Source: an uncultured Gammaproteobacteria bacterium
GTDB taxonomy: Bacteria > Patescibacteriota > Patescibacteriia > UBA1558 > S5-K13
Direction of reading: 5' to 3'
Assembly (NCBI GenBank): GCA_964640635.1
Contig: CAZXFD010000001.1
Coordinates: 177,302 to 241,301, forward strand
Length of the DNA: 64,000 bases
In this document: positions 15,229 through 40,634 of the stretch, in pieces
Layout of the letters: the number at the start of each line of letters is the position of its first letter
How positions within the stretch are numbered: position 1 is the stretch's first letter
Position numbers and translations under genes: made by a program
The notes under the pieces: generated by a model
Seen by the model: the letters and a program-made list of their open reading frames with translations, nothing else
Databases searched by the model: none
Told to the model about the DNA's origin: nothing

Positions 15229-15399
15229 ATTTAATTTAATAAATAAATTCGAAATAAGAATATCTAAATACTAAACAAATTTGAAATAAGAAATATTAAA
15301 TTAAGCAAACAGTATTTGAGTAATTTGTTTGTGATTTATTGTTTGATGTTTATTATTTGTTTATAATTTAGAATTTAGACTTTAGAATTTTTGAACATT

Positions 15400-18174
15400 A
15401 TGTCGCTATTAACAAAAATATTCGGTGATCCTAACAAAAAATATATAGACTCACTACTTCCTATCATTGAGAAAATAAATTCTCTTGAATCTGAGGTAGA
15501 AAAATTGTCTCAAGAAGAGCTTCGTGCTAAAACAAAGCAGTTTCAAACAGATCTAAAAGACAAAAAAACAACACTAGACGATATACTGCCATATGCATTT
15601 GCTATGACTAGAGAATCAGCAAAAAGAACTCTTAATCAGCGTCATTATGATGTTCAGCTTATTTCAGGAATTGTACTTCATCAAGGAAGAATTGCTGAAA
15701 TGAAAACAGGAGAAGGAAAAACACTTGCTTCAACGTGTCCTATATATCTCAATGCTCTTACGGGTCGTGGAGTTCAACTTATTACTGTAAATGATTATTT
15801 ATCAAAAAGAGATTGTGTTTGGATGGGACAAGTTTATCATTATTTAGGGCTTAGTGTTGCATCTATTGAGCACGAGACTTCATATATATATGATGAAAAT
15901 TTTGTAGATGCAAAAGACAAATCAGAAGATAAAAGTATTAAAGTGGTAGATGATTATCTTCGTCCAGTTACAAGACGTGAGGCATATCAAGCAGATGTTG
16001 TCTATGGAACTAATAATGAATTTGGTTTTGATTATCTACGAGATAATATGCAAACTGACAAAAATGAAATATGTCAGCGAGATTTTTATTATTGTATTAT
16101 TGATGAGGTTGATAGTGTACTTATTGATGAAGCTCGTACCCCACTTATTATAAGCTCTCCAGATGTTGAATCGACTGACAAATATAGAGAATTTTCTTTT
16201 GTTGTAGATGATCTTATAGAAAGTAAGCACTACAATATTGATGAAAAAATGAAATCAGTAACCTTTACAGAAGAAGGTCAAAATTATATAGCACAAAAAT
16301 TAAATGATGATCCATGGGCAAGAGCAGATTTTACAACAGTATTTCATTTGGAAGCGTCTCTTAAGGCAAAATTATTATTTAAGCGAGATAAGGATTATAT
16401 AGTCAAAGATGGTGAAATTTTAATCGTAGATGAGTTTACTGGACGTTTGATGCCTGGTCGTCGTTATTCTGAGGGAATTCACCAGGCGCTTGAGGCAAAA
16501 GAAGGAGTAAAAGTTCAAAGAGAGAGCTTAACCTTAGCAACGGTCACTTTTCAGAATTATTTTAGAATGTATGAAAAATTGTCTGGCATGACAGGAACTG
16601 CTCTTACAGAAGCAGAGGAGTTTGCAAAAATTTATAGTCTTGAAGTTGCCTCTATCCCTACAAACAAGCCCGTAGCTCGTCTTGATCTTAATGATAGAAT
16701 TTACAAAACAGAAATTGCAAAGTTTAATGCTATTGTAAAAGAAGTAAAAGAAAGAAATAAAAAAGGACAGCCAGTTTTGATAGGTACAATTTCAATAGAG
16801 CGAAATGAAATCATAGGAGATTTACTTAAGCGTGAAGGAGTTCCATATAAGCTTCTAAATGCAAAACAACATGAAAAAGAAGCTGAAATTATTTCTCAAG
16901 CAGGAAGACTTGGCGCAGTAACAGTTGCCACAAATATGGCTGGTCGTGGAGTAGATATTATTTTGGGTGGAAATCCATATAACAGTGAAGAAGCAGAAAA
17001 GGTAAAAAAATTAGGAGGTTTGCTAGTGCTTGGTACTGAGCGTCACGAATCTCGTCGTATTGATAATCAGCTTAGAGGTCGTGCAGGAAGACAAGGTGAT
17101 CCAGGAGCATCTCAGTTTTATGTTTCAATGGAAGACGATTTGATGCGTGTATTTGGTTCTGATCGTATGAAATCTATTATGAATACACTTGGTATTCCAG
17201 ATGAAATGCCTATTGAAAATAGAATGATATCAAGTTCAATAGAAAAGGCTCAGGTCAGAGTAGAAGGATATAACTTTGACATTAGAAAACATTTAGTTGA
17301 ATATGATGATGTTATAAACAAACAAAGAGAAATAATTTACAAAAAAAGAAGAGAAATTCTTGATTTATCAACTGGGTTGAAGATGGAAGAATATAAAAAC
17401 TTAGGTGATTATATCAAATCTATGATAAGTGAAGAAATTTCACAAATCATTTCTTTTCACACATCACTTGAGATAAATAATGTTTGGAATATAAATGAAA
17501 TAATAGAAAGCATAAAAACAATATTCCCACTAAGCGATGAAGAAGTAGAAAAAATTAGAAAGATGAATCCATTTGAGAGTCAGGAAAAGTCAAATCATGA
17601 TGAAGCGAGAGTTGCGATGACTAGCTATATTAATAATCTTTTGGAAGAAAAGTATAATTTATTAAGATCAAATATAAATAATTTGAGTAAACAAGAAATT
17701 GAAGATGGTTTTTCTCAAATAGAAAAAGGAATATTACTTCGATCTATTGATAATCTGTGGATAGATCATTTGGATAATATTTCTCATCTTAGAACTGGCA
17801 TTGGTCTTCGTGGATACGCACAAGCTGATCCTTTAGTTGAATACAAAAGAGAGTCCTATGATTTGTTTGTAGAGCTTTTAGCATCCTTAAATAAGCAAGT
17901 TGTCTATAGTATTTTCAAGGTAGGACCAGTAACGGGTATGCTTAGAGAAGAAAAGAAAACCATCAAACTAAATGACCCAAGTGAAAACCTAAACAAACAA
18001 TTTGAGCTTGGTGATGAAAGTAGAAAAGAAATTCACAACAAAACAACACTAAAAAACGAAGAAGTAAAGAAATATGGGACAAAGGTGGGTAGAAATGATG
18101 ATTGCCCATGTGGAGCGAAGAAGGCTGATGGAAGTCCAGTTAAATACAAGAATTGTTGTGGTAAGAATGAGTAA
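15400..18174 (+). CDS. secA: Preprotein translocase ATPase SecA
   Basis: MSLLTKIFGDPNKK N-terminus, DEAD-like motor motifs, and the C-terminal SEC-C zinc motif CPCGAKK...KYKNCCGKNE. Confidence 0.95.
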   Translation: MSLLTKIFGDPNKKYIDSLLPIIEKINSLESEVEKLSQEELRAKTKQFQTDLKDKKTTLDDILPYAFAMTRESAKRTLNQRHYDVQLISGIVLHQGRIAEMKTGEGKTLASTCPIYLNALTGRGVQLITVNDYLSKRDCVWMGQVYHYLGLSVASIEHETSYIYDENFVDAKDKSEDKSIKVVDDYLRPVTRREAYQADVVYGTNNEFGFDYLRDNMQTDKNEICQRDFYYCIIDEVDSVLIDEARTPLIISSPDVESTDKYREFSFVVDDLIESKHYNIDEKMKSVTFTEEGQNYIAQKLNDDPWARADFTTVFHLEASLKAKLLFKRDKDYIVKDGEILIVDEFTGRLMPGRRYSEGIHQALEAKEGVKVQRESLTLATVTFQNYFRMYEKLSGMTGTALTEAEEFAKIYSLEVASIPTNKPVARLDLNDRIYKTEIAKFNAIVKEVKERNKKGQPVLIGTISIERNEIIGDLLKREGVPYKLLNAKQHEKEAEIISQAGRLGAVTVATNMAGRGVDIILGGNPYNSEEAEKVKKLGGLLVLGTERHESRRIDNQLRGRAGRQGDPGASQFYVSMEDDLMRVFGSDRMKSIMNTLGIPDEMPIENRMISSSIEKAQVRVEGYNFDIRKHLVEYDDVINKQREIIYKKRREILDLSTGLKMEEYKNLGDYIKSMISEEISQIISFHTSLEINNVWNINEIIESIKTIFPLSDEEVEKIRKMNPFESQEKSNHDEARVAMTSYINNLLEEKYNLLRSNINNLSKQEIEDGFSQIEKGILLRSIDNLWIDHLDNISHLRTGIGLRGYAQADPLVEYKRESYDLFVELLASLNKQVVYSIFKVGPVTGMLREEKKTIKLNDPSENLNKQFELGDESRKEIHNKTTLKNEEVKKYGTKVGRNDDCPCGAKKADGSPVKYKNCCGKNE

Positions 18175-18283: not shown

Positions 18284-18490
18284 ATGCTTAAACTAGGAAA
18301 ATACAAACATTATAAGGGTAATGTTTATGAAGTAATTGGTATTGCAAAACATAGTGAAACTCAGGAAGAATTTGTTGTTTATCGCGCGCTTTATGGAAAT
18401 AATGACTTGTGGATTAGGCCACGAGAAATGTTTGAAAGTGATGTTGAGATAAATGGTCAAAAAGTTAAAAGATTTGAAATAATATTATGA
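18284..18490 (+). CDS. DUF1653 domain protein
   Basis: YKHYKGNVYEV...HSETQEEFVVYRALYGNNDLWIRP matches the DUF1653 signature. Confidence 0.6.
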   Translation: MLKLGKYKHYKGNVYEVIGIAKHSETQEEFVVYRALYGNNDLWIRPREMFESDVEINGQKVKRFEIIL

Positions 18491-18939
18491 AACAAAAAGA
18501 TTTATATCAAATATCGCTAAAACTTATCTTAAAAAATGATAAGGGAGAAGTTTTAATACTTAATGCAATTCGCGGCGGTACTTTTGAAGGGTTTTATGAT
18601 TTACCAGGTGGAAGAATAGATGTTGATGAGTTTAGGATTGATTTTGAAGATATTTTAAAAAGAGAAATAAACGAAGAACTCGGGGAAATAAAAGTTGATA
18701 TTTCATCCATTCCTATTTCAATAGGACGTCACTTGATTCCAGCTAGTTTATCAAGTACGGGTAGTGAAATGCATGTGCTTTATCTGTTTTTTGAAGGATG
18801 TTATTTGAGTGGGGATATTAAAATAAGCGAAGAACACCTTGGATATAAATGGGTAAATTTAAAAGAAATTGTGTTGGATGAATATTTTAATTCGGGAATC
18901 TTAGAGGGTATGAAAAGATATGTTAATACAATAAAATAA
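18487..18939 (+). CDS. NUDIX hydrolase
   Basis: Nudix box GGRIDVDEFRIDFEDILKREINEELGEI (G-x5-E-x7-REuxEExGu). Confidence 0.7.
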   Translation: MKQKDLYQISLKLILKNDKGEVLILNAIRGGTFEGFYDLPGGRIDVDEFRIDFEDILKREINEELGEIKVDISSIPISIGRHLIPASLSSTGSEMHVLYLFFEGCYLSGDIKISEEHLGYKWVNLKEIVLDEYFNSGILEGMKRYVNTIK

Positions 18940-18943
18940 TATT

Positions 18944-19756
18944 ATGAGCTTTGAAACCCCAGATATACAACAAGAAGTTAAAAAAAATAGAGAGAATTCA
19001 TCTGAAAAATTTAAATCTATTTATCGTGGTATTTGGGCAGATGAATTAGAAGATAAACAACAATTGCCAATGGGAGGTTCTTTGTTTAGTAAAGAATTGA
19101 CTACAAAATTGGAATTAGATTTTTCAAGTTTTGATTACGAGCTTAGCGGTTTTACAGAAGAAAATCTGAAAAAAATATATAAACAAAGCGAAGATAGTGT
19201 AAAGGAATGGCTTCGCAAAATAAACTCTAACATAGACCCATATTTATTTTTTTTGTTATTTCAGGCTCAGAAAAAGGTTCATAAACTTTTAGAAATAAAC
19301 CTAGAAACTCCAACAAATTCATTTGAAAGAAGAAAAATGTATCAAAATAATAATATTCCAAAATTATCTCAATTAAAGGGCAAGAGTGAATGTGTAGAAA
19401 GAGCTGTTTTGGGTCAATATATACTTCAAAAATCTGGAATAAAATCGTCTTATGTAAGTGGAATTACAATGAACAATCCTAAGGATGATGATGAATATCC
19501 AGAAGATCATAGTTTTATAGTTTTGAGTGATCCAACAAACAAAGCAAAAACTTTGATATTTGATATTGCAAGACCAAAGTCTGGAGCAGAAATTCCAAGA
19601 TTGTTAGAAACAGATGCCCCACTTACTTATGATTTATTAAAAGACAAGGAAGATCTTCTTGTGGGTGCAACAGAGGTTTTACAGAGAGGGAGACTTTGGT
19701 TTGGTGTTGGAGATCCAACAGCGGGATATCATGAAATAATAGAAAAACCAAATTAA
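18944..19756 (+). CDS. Hypothetical protein with a possible transglutaminase-like cysteine-peptidase core (Cys-His-Asp)
   Basis: GKSECVERAVLGQYILQKSGIKSSYVSG, then EDHSFIVL, then LIFDIARP. The order resembles the transglutaminase-like Cys/His/Asp core. Not verified. Confidence 0.35.
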   Translation: MSFETPDIQQEVKKNRENSSEKFKSIYRGIWADELEDKQQLPMGGSLFSKELTTKLELDFSSFDYELSGFTEENLKKIYKQSEDSVKEWLRKINSNIDPYLFFLLFQAQKKVHKLLEINLETPTNSFERRKMYQNNNIPKLSQLKGKSECVERAVLGQYILQKSGIKSSYVSGITMNNPKDDDEYPEDHSFIVLSDPTNKAKTLIFDIARPKSGAEIPRLLETDAPLTYDLLKDKEDLLVGATEVLQRGRLWFGVGDPTAGYHEIIEKPN

Positions 19757-19793
19757 TTTAATAAAGATTCAAAATCAATAAATAGTAAATCAA

Positions 19794-20276
19794 TTGAAAA
19801 TTGAAAATAGTCAAAATTCATCCCGCCAGGGCGGGATAAAAAATGTCTTTATCTGGGGCGCATACGATATTCTCCACGACGGTCATATTAAATTTATAGA
19901 ACATGCTAAGAAATTGGGTGATGTTTATGTTATTCTTGTACCAGATAAAGTAGTAAAAAAATACAAAAAATCTTATTTTAAAGCGAGTATAAGAAAAAAA
20001 CATTTACTAAAAACGGGGTTAGTAAAAAATGTTTTTATAGATGCACTTCCAAATATGAAATGTTTTGATAAAATAGCTCCTGATATATTTGTATTCGGTT
20101 ATGATCAGAACAAAGAATGGAATAACATTTTGAAGAAATATATTTTAGAAAGATTTTCAGATTGTAGGTTTAAAACATTAAAACAATATAGCGAAACACA
20201 TTCAAGTCATCTAAAAAGCAAGATATTATGTTATTGTAGAAGTGGAAAAAAGTTCGTTGATTGTCACGGAAAATAA
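19794..20276 (+). CDS. TagD-like cytidylyltransferase (HxGH nucleotidyltransferase) with a C-terminal SEC-C-like Cys/His motif; start codon ambiguous
   Basis: GAYDILHDGHIKFIEHAKKLGDVYVILV and IFVFGYDQNKEW closely parallel glycerol-3-phosphate cytidylyltransferase. The tail is CYCRSGKKFVDCHG. The only in-frame starts upstream of the KNVFIWG core are TTG 19794 or ATT 19800. Confidence 0.7.
   Translation: MKIENSQNSSRQGGIKNVFIWGAYDILHDGHIKFIEHAKKLGDVYVILVPDKVVKKYKKSYFKASIRKKHLLKTGLVKNVFIDALPNMKCFDKIAPDIFVFGYDQNKEWNNILKKYILERFSDCRFKTLKQYSETHSSHLKSKILCYCRSGKKFVDCHGK
19820..19837. repeat. 18-bp perfect palindrome ATCCCGCCAGGGCGGGAT (copy 1), inside the 5' coding region of the cytidylyltransferase gene
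   Basis: Seen directly. Encodes ...SRQGGI.... GC-rich in an AT-rich context. Confidence 0.8.
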
Positions 20277-20282
20277 TAATTA

Positions 20283-20300
20283 ATCCCGTCATGGCGGGAT
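20283..20300. repeat. 18-bp palindrome ATCCCGTCATGGCGGGAT (copy 2), intergenic, ending 11 nt before the MazG-like ATG
   Basis: Seen directly. Differs from copy 1 by a C-to-T change in the stem and a 1-nt change in the loop (CATGG for CAGGG). Confidence 0.8.
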
Positions 20301-20311
20301 AAGCTAAAAAT

Positions 20312-20671
20312 ATGAAAAAAATTACTACAATTAAAGATGCTCAAAAATTAGTAAAAGAATTTGCAAAGAAAAATAATTGGAAAGATATCCCAAATGTTGA
20401 TAAATTTGACCATATCCACGAAGAACTTATTGAAATGTCACAATACCTAAGATATAAAACGGAGAAGCAGAGAATAAAAGAAATTAAAGTTAATAAACAA
20501 ATTTTTACTGACGGAATAGGGGACTTATTTTTTGCAATTTGTAGGTTAGCAAATCAATTGAATGTTGATATTGAAAGTGCATTTAATATAGTAAGCGGTG
20601 AAATTTTCAAAAAATATGACAACAAAAACAAAGAAATAAACATTTCTTCAAAGAGGAAAAAAATAAAATGA
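20312..20671 (+). CDS. MazG-like nucleotide pyrophosphohydrolase (all-alpha NTP-PPase)
   Basis: HEELIEMSQYL...DGIGDLFFAICRLANQLNVDIESAF matches the MazG/YpjD-type EExxE...D motifs. Confidence 0.65.
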   Translation: MKKITTIKDAQKLVKEFAKKNNWKDIPNVDKFDHIHEELIEMSQYLRYKTEKQRIKEIKVNKQIFTDGIGDLFFAICRLANQLNVDIESAFNIVSGEIFKKYDNKNKEINISSKRKKIK

Positions 20672-21111
20672 TTTCAAGACAGCGACCATGTGCTATTATT
20701 GTTCAAAATGACAAAATATTGCTAATGAAAAGAATTAGAGATAATGAAACTTATTTTACATTTCCAGGTGGTCACGTAGAAGAAAATGAGGACTTGCAAG
20801 CGACTTTAAAAAGAGAAATTAAAGAAGAGTTAAATTTTGATATTAGTAATTTCAAAGAAGTTTTTCGAATTATTCAATTTATCCCGCCAAGGCGGGATGA
20901 ATCAAGAGAAAATATAGAAATTGAAAGTATATTTTATTTAGTATTTGATTTTAAGGGAGAATTACAACTTGGTGGCCCAGAGATTGAAAGAATGAAAACT
21001 GGAAAAAATAATTATTATCCAACGTGGTATAATAAAGTTGAATTTAGTGAACTTGATCCAATTTATCCAGTTGGTATAAAAGAGTTTGTTTTAGATAATC
21101 TACTTAGTTAA
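20668..21111 (+). CDS. NUDIX hydrolase (second copy) carrying an in-frame 6-codon palindromic insert
   Basis: Nudix box PGGHVEENEDLQATLKREIKEELN. Codons IPPRRD are encoded exactly by palindrome copy 3. Confidence 0.7.
   Translation: MISRQRPCAIIVQNDKILLMKRIRDNETYFTFPGGHVEENEDLQATLKREIKEELNFDISNFKEVFRIIQFIPPRRDESRENIEIESIFYLVFDFKGELQLGGPEIERMKTGKNNYYPTWYNKVEFSELDPIYPVGIKEFVLDNLLS
20881..20898. repeat. 18-bp perfect palindrome ATCCCGCCAAGGCGGGAT (copy 3), in-frame inside the Nudix CDS
   Basis: Seen directly. Starts on a codon boundary of the 20668 frame. Confidence 0.8.
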
Positions 21112-21118
21112 AAATTTA

Positions 21119-22327
21119 ATGAGAAAGAATTTTTCTTTGAAAACTATAAAATATATAATTTTATTTACCGCATTGGTAGATGTTCTTGGCATTGGAATCA
21201 TTATTCCAGTTTTACCATTTTATGTTAAATCATTTGGACTCTCTCCAGCTGGAATGACTATTTTATTTTCAGCCTTTTCTTTGTGTTCACTTTTTTCTAC
21301 TCCAATTTTAGGGTCGCTATCAGATAAATATGGAAGAAAAATCATTTTAGCAATAAGTCTTGCTTCAACAAGTCTGGGGTGGTTTGTATTTGCATTTGCG
21401 CCATCTGTTTTGTGGCTTTTTATAGGAAGAGTTATAGATGGACTTGCTGCTGGAAATTTTTCTACAGCGCAGGGAGTTTTATCGGATATTGCAAAAGATG
21501 AAAAACAAAGATCTCAAAATTTTGGACTTATTGGAGCTTTGTTTGGAATGGGGCTTATTATAGGACCAGCACTTGGTGGTCTTCTTATGTCAATATCACA
21601 CAATGCATCATTTATATTTGTTGGAATATTGTCTTTTTTAAATACAATTTTGATGTTGATTTTCTTGCCAGAAACCAATCTAAATAAAAGAAAAGAGGCA
21701 ATAATTAACCTCAATCCATTAAAAGCTATTTTTTATTCTTTCACAAAGTCAAATATAAAGAGTTTGTTTTCTTCATGGTTTGTTTTCCATGTATCAATGG
21801 CAATTTTCCAATCAGTTTTTTCTTTGTATCTATTAGAAATATTTGGATTTAATTCTATAACAATTTCCATGGTTTTGGCAGGGCAAGGAGTAATAATGGT
21901 TATAAATCAAGGATTCTTATTAAAACATTTTTGGCTCAAGAGATTTTCTATTAAAAGCCTGTCTTATTACTTGTATATATTTATAGGATTAGCGACATTA
22001 TGTTTTGCAGTTAAAAATGTATATTTTTTAATTTTAGGAATATTGATTTTGTCGCTTTCTCAGCCAGTTCTAAGAGTGGCCGTTACGAGCGAGGTTATAT
22101 CAAATACAGATGATACAAAAAGAGGAGAGGTGCTTGGAGTTATGGCATCAATTGCAAATTTAGGTATGATTGTTGGACCACTTTTCTCTGGACTTCTATA
22201 TTCAATATCTTTTAGGCTTCCTTTTCTAATTTCCTCGGGGATAATATTTTTGATATTTATTATTATGAGTATTTCTATAGGGAAATACAAAAAGGCAAAT
22301 AAAATATCGGATTGTGTTAATATATAA
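21119..22327 (+). CDS. MFS transporter
   Basis: 12-TM profile with the MFS loop motif GSLSDKYGRKIIL and GRVIDGLAAG. Confidence 0.8.
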   Translation: MRKNFSLKTIKYIILFTALVDVLGIGIIIPVLPFYVKSFGLSPAGMTILFSAFSLCSLFSTPILGSLSDKYGRKIILAISLASTSLGWFVFAFAPSVLWLFIGRVIDGLAAGNFSTAQGVLSDIAKDEKQRSQNFGLIGALFGMGLIIGPALGGLLMSISHNASFIFVGILSFLNTILMLIFLPETNLNKRKEAIINLNPLKAIFYSFTKSNIKSLFSSWFVFHVSMAIFQSVFSLYLLEIFGFNSITISMVLAGQGVIMVINQGFLLKHFWLKRFSIKSLSYYLYIFIGLATLCFAVKNVYFLILGILILSLSQPVLRVAVTSEVISNTDDTKRGEVLGVMASIANLGMIVGPLFSGLLYSISFRLPFLISSGIIFLIFIIMSISIGKYKKANKISDCVNI

Positions 22328-22403
22328 AAGTCTAAGGCATAAAGTCGTAAGGCGTAAGTTTTTTGCCTTTTCACTTTCACCTTTATTTACTAATTTTAAA
22401 ATT

Positions 22404-23024
22404 ATGCAAAAAACAACAAAAAATGTATTATTATTAGCTTTACTATTAATTGGATTAGTAGTTTTGGTGTTTTGTTTACGAAGCTACTTAAAAAAGAGTG
22501 TCACACAACCTCAAAAAATTATTCAAGAAAATCAGGAGTCTGTTGGCATTGCAAATCCTGCGTCAGTATATTGTAAAGATAATGGTGGAAAATCTGAGAT
22601 AAAAAATAATGAAGAGGGACAATATGGTATGTGTGTTTTTCCAGACGGAAGCCAGTGTGATGAATGGAAATTTTTTAGAAAAGAATGTGGCGTTGGAGAT
22701 TCTAACATAAGTCCAGAAAAAGATTTAGAATTAATTACTCAAGCACTAGTTTTAAAGGATGGAATTGATTTAGATCTTGTTGATGTTTCTATAGGTAATA
22801 GAGTAAATAATTTTGTTTCTGGTTCTATTTCGCCAAAAGAAGAGGGTATTGGTGGAGCATATTTTTTCGCAGTAAAAAATAATGGTGTATGGAAAATATT
22901 AGCTAGTGGAAATGGTATTATAAAATGTGAAGACATAAAAGACTATCCAAATTTTCCTATAAACATGATTCCAGCATGCATTTCTAAAAATGGAGAACTA
23001 GAGAGACGAGACTTGCCGTTATAA
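22404..23024 (+). CDS. Secreted/membrane-anchored DUF333-like protein
   Basis: Signal anchor then NPASVYCKDNGG...GMCVFPDGSQCDEWKFFRKEC, the DUF333 putative hemolysin-like Cys pattern. Start set at the internal ATG after a weak hairpin. Confidence 0.5.
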   Translation: MQKTTKNVLLLALLLIGLVVLVFCLRSYLKKSVTQPQKIIQENQESVGIANPASVYCKDNGGKSEIKNNEEGQYGMCVFPDGSQCDEWKFFRKECGVGDSNISPEKDLELITQALVLKDGIDLDLVDVSIGNRVNNFVSGSISPKEEGIGGAYFFAVKNNGVWKILASGNGIIKCEDIKDYPNFPINMIPACISKNGELERRDLPL

Positions 23025-23088
23025 GTTTTTAGGTAAAAAAGAAAAGAGTGATCATAGACCACTCTTTTTAGTTTTCCGTATTTCTTTA

Positions 23089-23472
23089 TTATATGTTTGG
23101 GAACACGGGGGATATATCTTCTTGTAGAAGTTGTCTTATGATAATTCCCGAGATCTCACTATATTCTTTTTTAATTTGTGAAATGGCATCTAATAAGTCG
23201 TATGCCATAATAGTTTTTTCTTCTTTGGTGCCGAGTATTTTGTAAACAAAGGCACGCAGCGGGTTAATTAGACCTTGAACATCTTCTGGAAGGACGCGTT
23301 TGCATCGAACTGCGTCTCTATCCGGTACATTTGAATGTTTGGAATTTTCCAATCCTTCAAAATACTTGTCAATTGCATTTTTCTCGTTTTCTGCTTCGAT
23401 GTATCCGGCACTGGGCTTTGGTCCGTCACAATTAAACCAGCATGCCCATAAAATAAGTTGTTTTTGACACAT
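23089..23472 (-). CDS. Hypothetical cytoplasmic protein (Cys-containing N-terminus CWFNCDG)
   Basis: Strong Shine-Dalgarno GGGAGGAAAA immediately upstream on the minus strand. No family recognised. Confidence 0.5.
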   Translation of the reverse strand: MCQKQLILWACWFNCDGPKPSAGYIEAENEKNAIDKYFEGLENSKHSNVPDRDAVRCKRVLPEDVQGLINPLRAFVYKILGTKEEKTIMAYDLLDAISQIKKEYSEISGIIIRQLLQEDISPVFPNI

Positions 23473-23550: not shown

Positions 23551-23579
23551 TTGACACTTTTTATATATCTGCTATACTT
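23551..23579 (+). promoter_or_regulatory. Sigma-70-like promoter of the rplJL operon (TTGACA, 17 nt spacer, TATACT)
   Basis: ttgacactttttatatatctgcTATACT lies about 200 nt upstream of rplJ. Confidence 0.55.
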
Positions 23580-23666
23580 ATTTCGTAATCCACAGACAGC
23601 GAGCGTCGACTGAAAACGGCTTAATTTCTCGCCAAGGATAAAAGATTATTTTTTAGTCTATTATTT

Positions 23667-23693
23667 CTGCGGATAACGCAGTTTTTTTATTTT
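23667..23693 (+). promoter_or_regulatory. L10 leader attenuator-like hairpin plus U-tract
   Basis: CTGCG-gataa-CGCAG followed by TTTTTTTATTTT, inside the long rplJ 5' leader. Confidence 0.45.
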
Positions 23694-23782
23694 AGTATAA
23701 AGTTAAATATCGCGAGATTATAAAGAAAAAACCAACTTTATATACTTTCGACTTTAGACTTTTTAACTTTTAACTTAACATT

Positions 23783-40423: not shown

Positions 40424-40439
40424 CCCCGCCATGGCGGGG
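40424..40439. repeat. Perfect GC palindrome CCCCGCC-at-GGCGGGG, ending 12 nt before the desulforedoxin ATG
   Basis: Seen directly. The hairpin loop contains an ATG. Confidence 0.7.
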
Positions 40440-40451
40440 CAAGCTAACCAT

Positions 40452-40586
40452 ATGAACGTACAAAAAGAAGGAGAAAAGTATTATTGTGAAATTTGTGGAA
40501 ATGAAGTAACTGTAACAAAAGCTGGTGGAGGAGAGCTTATTTGTTGCGGAAAGCCCATGGAATTATTGAAGGAAGTGACTGAATAG
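40452..40586 (+). CDS. Desulforedoxin-like small metal-binding protein (44 aa), absent from the ORF track
   Basis: [39 protein letters not shown] has the CxxC...CC spacing and flanks of desulforedoxin and the Dfx N-domain. Confidence 0.65.
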
Positions 40587-40605: not shown

Positions 40606-40634
40606 TCCGCCAGAGGCGGATCAGCCTTCGGCTG
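40606..40634. repeat. Two adjacent GC hairpins (TCCGCC-aga-GGCGGA and CAGCC-ttcg-GCTG) downstream of the desulforedoxin gene
   Basis: Seen directly. Confidence 0.55.

Follow-up and report, generated by a model that had tools for sequence, protein, structure and literature searches.

A putative RibL-like nucleotidyltransferase with a SecA-type tail and recurrent pyrophosphohydrolase neighbours in a Patescibacteria genome

Introduction

What do the small nucleotide-handling genes between secA and rplJ in a Patescibacteria genome do, and do they belong together? The question is raised by a 64,000-nucleotide stretch of DNA, here called the window, from an uncultured bacterium of the GTDB lineage Patescibacteriota (GenBank assembly GCA_964640635.1, contig CAZXFD010000001.1, positions 177,302 to 241,301 of the forward strand). 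An earlier note on its sequence had pointed to six consecutive small genes within positions 18284-21111 and had named their products as a DUF1653 protein, a Nudix protein, a protein with a transglutaminase-like Cys-His-Asp order, a TagD-like cytidylyltransferase with a SEC-C-like tail, a MazG-like pyrophosphatase and a second Nudix protein, with the suggestion that they form one coordinated module. Six open reading frames (ORFs) on the + strand were confirmed at the coordinates given there, and profile searches agree with the domain identities. All components come from known superfamilies. At the durable core of the locus stands a nucleotidyltransferase (NTase) that has Nudix, Ham1 or MazG as a neighbour, an arrangement that recurs across bacteria of the candidate phyla radiation (CPR) and DPANN archaea. 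From its motifs and alignments, this NTase is better read as a RibL/3glv-like, flavin adenine dinucleotide (FAD) synthase-like adenylyl/cytidylyltransferase than as TagD. For the locus as a whole we favour, with about even confidence, a loosely coupled neighbourhood for cofactor and nucleotide salvage and sanitation, centred on the RibL-like NTase and its pyrophosphohydrolase partners.

Results and discussion

The nucleotidyltransferase and its closest relatives

The NTase gene (19794..20276, + strand) starts with TTG and encodes a HIGH-motif protein of 160 aa that matches Pfam CTP_transf_like at 7.9e-14. Its motifs are HDGH (residues 28-31), GYDQ (102-105) and HSS (136-138), and among 16 homologues from an indexed search H28, G30 and H31 are invariant, as are HxGH, FGYDQ and HSS as motifs. 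When 1.84 billion cluster representatives were scanned in full with a hidden Markov model, 12,421 reached 1e-3 and only 7 reached 1e-30, so the subfamily is narrow. The family profile matches PDB entry 3glv with 75.7 bits (3.5e-20) over profile positions 9-138, which is the full length, whereas TagD gives 59 bits over positions 7-101 only; TagD, ECT and HldC all match over the N-terminal ~100 residues only. Near its C-terminus the NTase has the motif ETHSSHLK and not the RTxGISTT of TagD, which places it outside the definition of TagD. The TagD-like label given earlier is on these comparisons best replaced by RibL/3glv-like.

RibL, the archaeal FAD synthase, also accepts CTP, and two of its cysteines have been linked to the binding of metal and to its sensitivity to air (PMC11423594). 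With archaeal RibL and its kin (M. jannaschii MJ1179, the T. volcanium structure 3glv and Entamoeba EhFADS), the NTase shares the small size of ~140-160 aa, the HxGH, GxDQ and C-terminal HSS/SSS motifs, the full-length alignment and cysteines near the C-terminus. It differs in being ~31% identical, in coming from a bacterial host of the Patescibacteria, and in carrying a complete SecA-type CXCX8CH domain in place of two isolated C-terminal cysteines. As RibL comparison sequence we used what we take to be M. jannaschii MJ1179, a lead and not a database record, which was checked only by its match to 3glv (3e-27). In hhalign this sequence and the NTase family align with a probability of 98.8 and 31% identity, with GxDQ and HSS in register. 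When the RibL cysteines (C126/C143 in MJ1179) were looked for, one fell on the first SEC-C cysteine of the NTase and the second was without counterpart in the hhalign alignment; the NTase family has near-invariant cysteines of its own, C90 and C124. RibL would accordingly stand as the closest characterised relative of the NTase, whose substrate, like those of all enzymes in the cluster, we infer. A Methanothermococcus sequence (L091) was dropped as RibL reference, as it is an archaeal phosphopantetheine adenylyltransferase, and a literature search for 3GLV returned unrelated papers only.

That the NTase is specifically an FAD synthase is a tentative step further, to which we give somewhat less than even confidence. 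Several observations weigh against it. The identity to RibL is low, and the RibL sequence behind it is not a database record. The AlphaFold2 model of the NTase (predicted local distance difference test 82) has the expected nucleotidyltransferase fold, and its Foldseek matches are TagD, Fom1 (CyTase), 3glv and HldC, so that Foldseek cannot tell a RibL-like enzyme from TagD, Fom1 or HldC. A RibL model was absent among the NCBIfam hits obtained, and all NCBIfam equivalogs lie far below cut-off for the cluster proteins, which gives no curated substrate assignment. Neither a flavin mononucleotide (FMN) riboswitch nor a riboflavin kinase was seen in the region. In favour of it counts the only direct riboflavin link found, at a single distant locus: in a Nanoarchaeota metagenome-assembled genome (MAG; L058, 1676-2766), the gene for GTP cyclohydrolase II, an enzyme of the riboflavin pathway, shares 4 nt with the beginning of a GYDQ NTase gene.

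The same searches bear on a different reading, in which the NTase would make an envelope precursor (CDP-glycerol as TagD does, ADP-heptose as HldC does, or CDP-ethanolamine) and the Nudix proteins would trim nucleoside diphosphate (NDP)-alcohols or NDP-sugars. The top Foldseek matches TagD, Fom1 CyTase and HldC fit this, as do partial NCBIfam matches of the NTase to rfaE domain II (42 bits) and TagD (37.4 bits) and a weak likeness of the first Nudix protein to GDP-mannose mannosyl hydrolase. These scores are, however, far under the curated cut-offs of 165-181 bits (165.4 for TIGR01518), TagD and ECT align over the N-terminal part only where 3glv and RibL align at full length with GYDQ and HSS, and the neighbourhood holds no glycosyl- or teichoic-acid genes. 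We regard an envelope role as improbable and retain the RibL-like assignment in what follows.

A SecA-type metal-binding tail

The last 15 residues of the NTase, CYCRSGKKFVDCHGK, hold the tail (residues 146-158, CYCRSGKKFVDCH; 20229..20267, + strand), whose ligand pattern CXCX8CH is formed by C146-Y-C148-X8-C157-H158. A metal-binding domain of the SecA type is recognised by the ligand spacing CXCX8C[H/C] together with a Ser that is conserved and an aromatic side chain (bioRxiv 10.1101/613315), the latter two corresponding to S889 and Y893 in E. coli SecA. The tail has Ser at +2 and Phe at +6 after the second Cys (CYCRSGKKF), kept as SGK.F in relatives. Every sequence feature that marks the SecA metal-binding domain is present in this predicted domain. 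With the SEC-C of SecA it has in common the CXCX8CH spacing, the Ser two residues after the second Cys, the aromatic residue at the Tyr-893 position and the extreme C-terminal location; it differs in sitting on a nucleotidyltransferase. SEC-C (PF02810) also occurs in YecA, YchJ and some methionine aminopeptidases. The tail scores 18.5 bits against the Pfam model, under the cut-off of 20.4, and one homologue (P0009) has a precomputed PF02810 match.

The SEC-C-like tail described in the earlier note is thus real, and it is conserved: most close relatives keep it (P0001-P0009), as do three more distant ones (L015, P0099 and P0100). In P0010 a Tyr replaces the first Cys and the tail is degenerate, and P0011-P0016, L007/L008 and L016 lack it, a patchy presence and absence which indicates repeated gain or loss. 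Its attachment to a RibL-like transferase is a new element and a rare architecture, found in a handful of 50% clusters. The tail would bind Zn or Fe through its three Cys and one His, and might make the enzyme responsive to metal or redox state or tether it to ribosomes.

The SecA encoded in the window has itself a remodelled C-terminus (18103-18174), which ends CPCGAKKADGSPVKYKNCC / CPCGAKKADGSPVKYKNCCGKNE, with a 6-residue insertion (X14 vs X8) and Ala for the conserved Ser. This remodelled end is kept in L001, L002 and L012, and the SecA proteins of L007 and L015 are canonical (CxCGSGKK[YF]KKCHGK). A complementary distribution, with the tail on the NTase only where SecA has lost its domain, was considered and rejected, as L015 has the canonical form on both proteins.

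NTases and pyrophosphohydrolases are neighbours in distant genomes

The wider association was assessed on 43 loci with GYDQ-motif NTases, taken from GTDB species representatives and related contigs, in which genes were called and neighbours scanned against Pfam. Among the 81 immediate neighbours (±1) were eight NUDIX, two Ham1 and two MazG genes; NUDIX accounted for 3 of the 79 second neighbours (±2) and for 2 of 109 control genes at ±5/6. Fisher's test of ±1 against ±5/6 gave p = 0.02 for Nudix alone and p = 0.005 for the three families, with one Ham1 gene (L005) counted in the control. Five of the eight Nudix neighbours stem from the close clade, so that the test is generous and overstates independence, which speaks against reading too much into the enrichment. 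Among distant loci, independent cases have a Nudix gene that overlaps the NTase (L021), a fused Ham1+Nudix ORF directly downstream of it (L045, L046 and L070) or a MazG gene that abuts it (L019). Cluster representatives also include fusion proteins, NTase-Nudix (P0126, of the GYDQ family) and NTase-Ham1 (P0179), and these fusions are the strongest argument for functional coupling.

The arrangement recalls NadM-Nudix, the bifunctional nicotinamide mononucleotide adenylyltransferase/ADP-ribose pyrophosphatase, in which a HIGH-motif NTase is likewise coupled to a Nudix protein, adjacent or in one polypeptide. The transferase belongs to another subfamily there, and the NCBIfam models match only at the level of the Nudix box (E 3e-4 to 3e-3); no evidence for NAD chemistry was found for the cluster. 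Likewise, the folds and catalytic acids of house-cleaning nucleoside triphosphate (NTP) pyrophosphatases (MutT-type Nudix, MazG/YpjD, Ham1/RdgB) are shared by the cluster proteins, to which relatives add Ham1; several such genes around one NTase locus are unusual for them. The recurrent pairing and fusion of transferase and hydrolase in CPR bacteria and DPANN archaea is a new element, and it offers a testable hypothesis for abundant uncharacterised proteins of both groups.

As a separate observation, in many CPR genomes a 'KSS-type' GYDQ transferase gene directly follows a class II (Lys/Asp/Asn-type) tRNA synthetase gene (~490 aa), often with greA ahead (L021, L036, L042, L045, L052, L070, L082 and L087), a housekeeping synteny unlike that of the window.

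The secA-rplJ interval varies between relatives

In the window secA (15391-18174) lies upstream of the gene run and rplJ downstream, and both Nudix genes and the NTase, all inside the cluster, are the only ones of their kinds detected in its 64 kb. The nearest species representative is a Candidatus Komeilibacteria MAG (L012, NTase identity 91%). Its order is secA, two Nudix genes, Fic, DUF1653, Nudix-1, the homologue of the 270-aa transglutaminase-fold protein (478 aa), NTase, MazG-like, hemerythrin, Nudix-2 and DUF333. L011 (81%) has methylase, ASCH, DUF1653, Nudix-1, NTase, MazG-like, hemerythrin, Nudix and Nudix-2, and L005 (74%) has six Nudix genes with HIT, Ham1, CYTH, NTase, MazG-like and MFS, two of the six being short adjacent ORFs and perhaps one split gene. 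The order in L002 (73%) is Ham1, 270-aa homologue, NTase, Nudix, MFS, Nudix-2 and DUF333, and in L001 (72%) four Nudix genes surround the NTase. Among more distant relatives, L015 (48%) carries secA, Nudix-1 and an NTase with the tail, then YceG and Nudix, and L007/L008 (47%) carry secA, DUF1653, an NTase without the tail and Nudix. The order secA-(DUF1653/Nudix)-NTase(-Nudix) therefore holds down to 47-48% NTase identity. No two relatives compared with the window match it in what lies between secA and rplJ; they carry up to six Nudix genes as well as Ham1, HIT, CYTH, Fic and hemerythrin. The interval is a lineage-variable slot in which the NTase and one or more Nudix genes are the constants, and since its content varies the six genes are not one fixed module. 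Of the expectation that the genes are conserved together, what stands is the pairing of NTase and pyrophosphohydrolase, down to 47-48% identity, in unrelated loci and in fusions; the six-gene set does not.

The coordinated module proposed earlier also fails at the third gene of the run (18944..19756, + strand), whose 270-aa product has a Cys150-His189-Asp207 triad. The predicted structure is the transglutaminase core fold, with a triad that does not vary in the family; in its fold, as predicted, and in the order of the triad the protein agrees with transglutaminase- and papain-like Cys-His-Asp enzymes (TglA 9crn, TG2/TG3, PNGase and LapG). The protein represents a widespread Patescibacteria family with variable gene context and no Pfam model. 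In four distant genomes its neighbours are Nudix and serine hydroxymethyltransferase, a sugar transferase, a phosphoketolase and arginase, and its place as an integral member of a module was rejected on these unrelated neighbours, which make it a passenger. A literature search on S. pyogenes TglA gave nothing useful. In L012 (4556-5992) the homologue of 478 aa has an uncharacterised C-terminal extension of ~200 residues.

This variability would also be expected if the locus were synteny without function, that is, unrelated small housekeeping genes packed on one strand in an interval that accumulates paralogues. In addition to the differing gene content and the unrelated neighbours of the 270-aa family, nearly all genes of the window are on the + strand and most of the conserved synteny stems from close relatives. 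Set against this are the NTase-Nudix and NTase-Ham1 fusions, the recurrence of NTase-hydrolase adjacency in distant CPR and DPANN loci, and the excess of Nudix, Ham1 and MazG at ±1 over the ±5/6 control. We consider it a serious alternative that is nevertheless clearly less probable than loose coupling, at roughly half the weight; if the genes were mere neighbours, the locus would be a case of ordinary gene packing in a streamlined genome.

A variable slot between conserved flanks could also point to a nucleotide-centred conflict or defence island, in which Nudix, MazG, HIT, CYTH, Fic and methylase proteins would make or degrade signals or deplete pools under phage attack. Relatives do carry Fic, a C5 DNA methylase, ASCH and CYTH, and both Nudix proteins match the PADLOC candidate PDC-S07. 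But the search turned up neither a sensor nor an effector nor a nucleotide cyclase, and no further PADLOC system matched. The core genes are conserved by vertical descent at a single place in the chromosome, and almost all CPR have the MazG-like and 270-aa families at high identity, the usual pattern for housekeeping genes. As PADLOC gives generic Nudix matches only, we rejected defence as primary reading and hold it to be very improbable.

A loosely coupled neighbourhood and its possible chemistry

In the reading we favour, loose coupling around the NTase, independent enzymes would act on nucleotides and nucleotide-linked cofactors, without a fixed pathway, in a variable slot of a Komeilibacteria-like Patescibacterium. 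The NTase would join a nucleoside monophosphate to a phosphorylated acceptor, the likeliest reaction being FMN + ATP -> FAD + PPi. Judging from their families, the Nudix neighbours would cleave nucleoside-diphosphate-X compounds or (d)NTPs, and the MazG-like protein would clear aberrant NTPs. NTase and hydrolases together could set the cofactor and nucleotide pools of an organism that lives by salvage. The 270-aa protein, the MFS transporter and the DUF333 protein would be co-transcribed passengers, whose linkage is lost in distant genomes.

In Parcubacteria, ribK, ribL and ribF were not found in a survey, yet the FAD-dependent MurB and TrxB are kept (PMC4508563). A RibL-like enzyme that works in Patescibacteria would be relevant to this gap; no paper tying such an enzyme to it was found in the literature searched, which is not proof that none exists. 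In a bolder version, GYDQ RibL-like NTases would be the missing FAD synthases of Patescibacteria and DPANN archaea, the Komeilibacteria-type enzyme would have gained an Fe/Zn tail that couples FAD synthesis to iron, redox state or the ribosome, and the Nudix proteins would act as FAD or NDP-X pyrophosphatases in a synthase/hydrolase homeostat. This full scheme we rate as unlikely, a little below synteny without function. If the NTase were an FAD synthase, it would help to explain the supply of an essential cofactor in ultra-small, salvage-dependent bacteria that earlier genome surveys left unaccounted for, and would show that a metabolic enzyme has taken over the metal-binding module of SecA.

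The other proteins and the transcription unit

The first gene (18284..18490, + strand) encodes a DUF1653 protein of 68 aa (Pfam PF07866, 2.2e-29) that matches the uncharacterised protein 3be3 in the PDB at 7e-6. A DUF1653 gene also lies upstream of the NTase in L007/L008, L011 and L012, and a literature search gave nothing beyond a proteomics mention.

Both Nudix proteins score above the Pfam cut-off and were compared with the box GX5EX7REUXEEXGU. The first (Nudix-1; 18487..18939, + strand; 150 aa; Pfam NUDIX 1.2e-9) has a non-canonical box, GX5EX10REUXEEXG, in which X10 replaces X7 and REUXEE is kept (GRIDVDE-FRIDFEDILK-REINEELG). Its PDB matches are 3grn (6.6e-13) and NudI (1.7e-8), and orthologues were found in L005, L011, L012 and L015. 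The second (Nudix-2; 20668..21111, + strand; 147 aa; Pfam NUDIX 2.8e-15) has its box at residue 35, canonical save for G->N at the last Gly, and orthologues in L001, L002, L005, L011, L012 and L013.

Between the NTase and Nudix-2 lies the gene for a putative MazG-like (YpjD-type), all-alpha NTP pyrophosphohydrolase of 119 aa (20312..20671, + strand), which was assigned by its family profile against the PDB: MazG-like structures match at 1.4e-6 (5ie9) and 2.1e-6 (YpjD 2gta). It stays below curated thresholds (NCBIfam mazG 27 bits, 3e-6) and has no Pfam match. The family comprises at least 286 homologues with 65-77% identity across CPR bacteria and DPANN archaea and 48 invariant columns. In a search for the metal-binding acid pattern EExxE ... 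D/ExxD, E37, E38, D67 and D71 were found to be invariant and E41 near-invariant. Some sources label members of this 119-aa family MazG-like. The 270-aa and the MazG-like 119-aa families are new elements, widespread and unnamed; the Cys-His-Asp proteins of the one and the very conserved proteins of the other are easy to express.

As described earlier, an MFS transporter follows the cluster; its gene (21119..22327, + strand; 402 aa; Pfam MFS_1 1e-49) starts 7 nt further on. The protein is of a generic DHA1/Tet-like type, with 199 bits against NCBIfam Tet(A/B/C) at a cut-off of 475, and orthologues were found in L005 and L013. The start of the DUF333 gene (22314..23024, + strand; Pfam DUF333 1.1e-22), the last of the co-directional run, overlaps it by 14 nt. 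Its product has an N-terminal transmembrane segment, and the gene is syntenic in L002, L012 and L013.

Within the six-gene run the spacers are -4, 4, 37, 35 and -4 nt. A terminator-like hairpin (23030..23080; inverted repeat I14 with a terminator-like site at 23068-23042) is common to the end of the run and to the convergent gene 23089-23472. Judged by this layout, positions 18284 to ~23024 are probably one transcription unit that ends at the hairpin at ~23030-23080. The window has ~30% G+C and carries almost every gene on the + strand, and with co-direction nearly universal and packing tight in this genome, operon-like spacing is weak evidence, a point that counts against a functional unit. 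Rfam gave no riboswitch or other RNA element in the cluster; its sole match, outside the cluster, is a near-threshold ribosomal protein L10 leader (RF00557) at 23572-23696, directly before rplJ, with 43.1 bits against a gathering score of 44.

Palindromes within the locus

The 64 kb hold three exact copies of the palindrome ATCCCGCCnnGGCGGGAT, all within 19820-20898; chance would give none. Copy 1 (19820..19837) is part of an insertion of 21 nt that keeps the reading frame and by which the N-terminal tail of the NTase gains NSSRQGG; the insertion is present in the window and in L012 and not in L011, L013 or P0002-P0004. Copy 3 (20881..20898), likewise an insertion in frame, is 18 nt long and lengthens a loop of Nudix-2 by six residues (PPRRDE); it is missing in 6/6 Nudix-2 orthologues, that of L012 included. 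Two of the three palindromes are thus recent in-frame insertions in coding sequence. The earlier note saw the cluster as decorated with palindromes, but they do not serve it as regulatory punctuation. Copy 2 (ATCCCGTCATGGCGGGAT; 20283..20300) is intergenic, 11 nt before the start codon of the MazG-like gene, in a spacer that differs in L011, L012 and L013.

A lineage-private repeat family that marks the cluster was rejected as an explanation, since the same hairpin with AATT flanks, AATTNATCCCGYCNNGGCGGGAT, is found in 68 metagenome stretches (L096-L163) of 29-67% G+C, nearly always as a single copy and often ahead of a T-run, or else of A-rich sequence and an ATG. The palindrome is best described, on this distribution, as a widespread generic hairpin motif that appears to have been copied recently into the locus, not as a module marker.

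The NTase and MazG-like genes, 35 nt apart in the window with the palindrome in this gap, are separated by ~180 nt in L011 (3547-3728) and L013 (695-880), a stretch that is conserved and forms strong hairpins (AAAACCGCAAGAG...CTCTTGCGGT); it might serve as a terminator or give rise to a small RNA. Elsewhere in the window a related palindrome, CCCGCCATGGCGGG, lies at 40425-40438, 13 nt upstream of the gene for a 44-aa desulforedoxin (40452-40586; Pfam Desulfoferrod_N 1.8e-16). It shares with palindrome copy 2 a downstream string, AAGCTAA..ATATGAA, which together with the palindrome may be a common 5' element. A GC-rich palindrome with the same core, TCCGCCAGAGGCGGA, is found at 40607-40621, just past the desulforedoxin gene.

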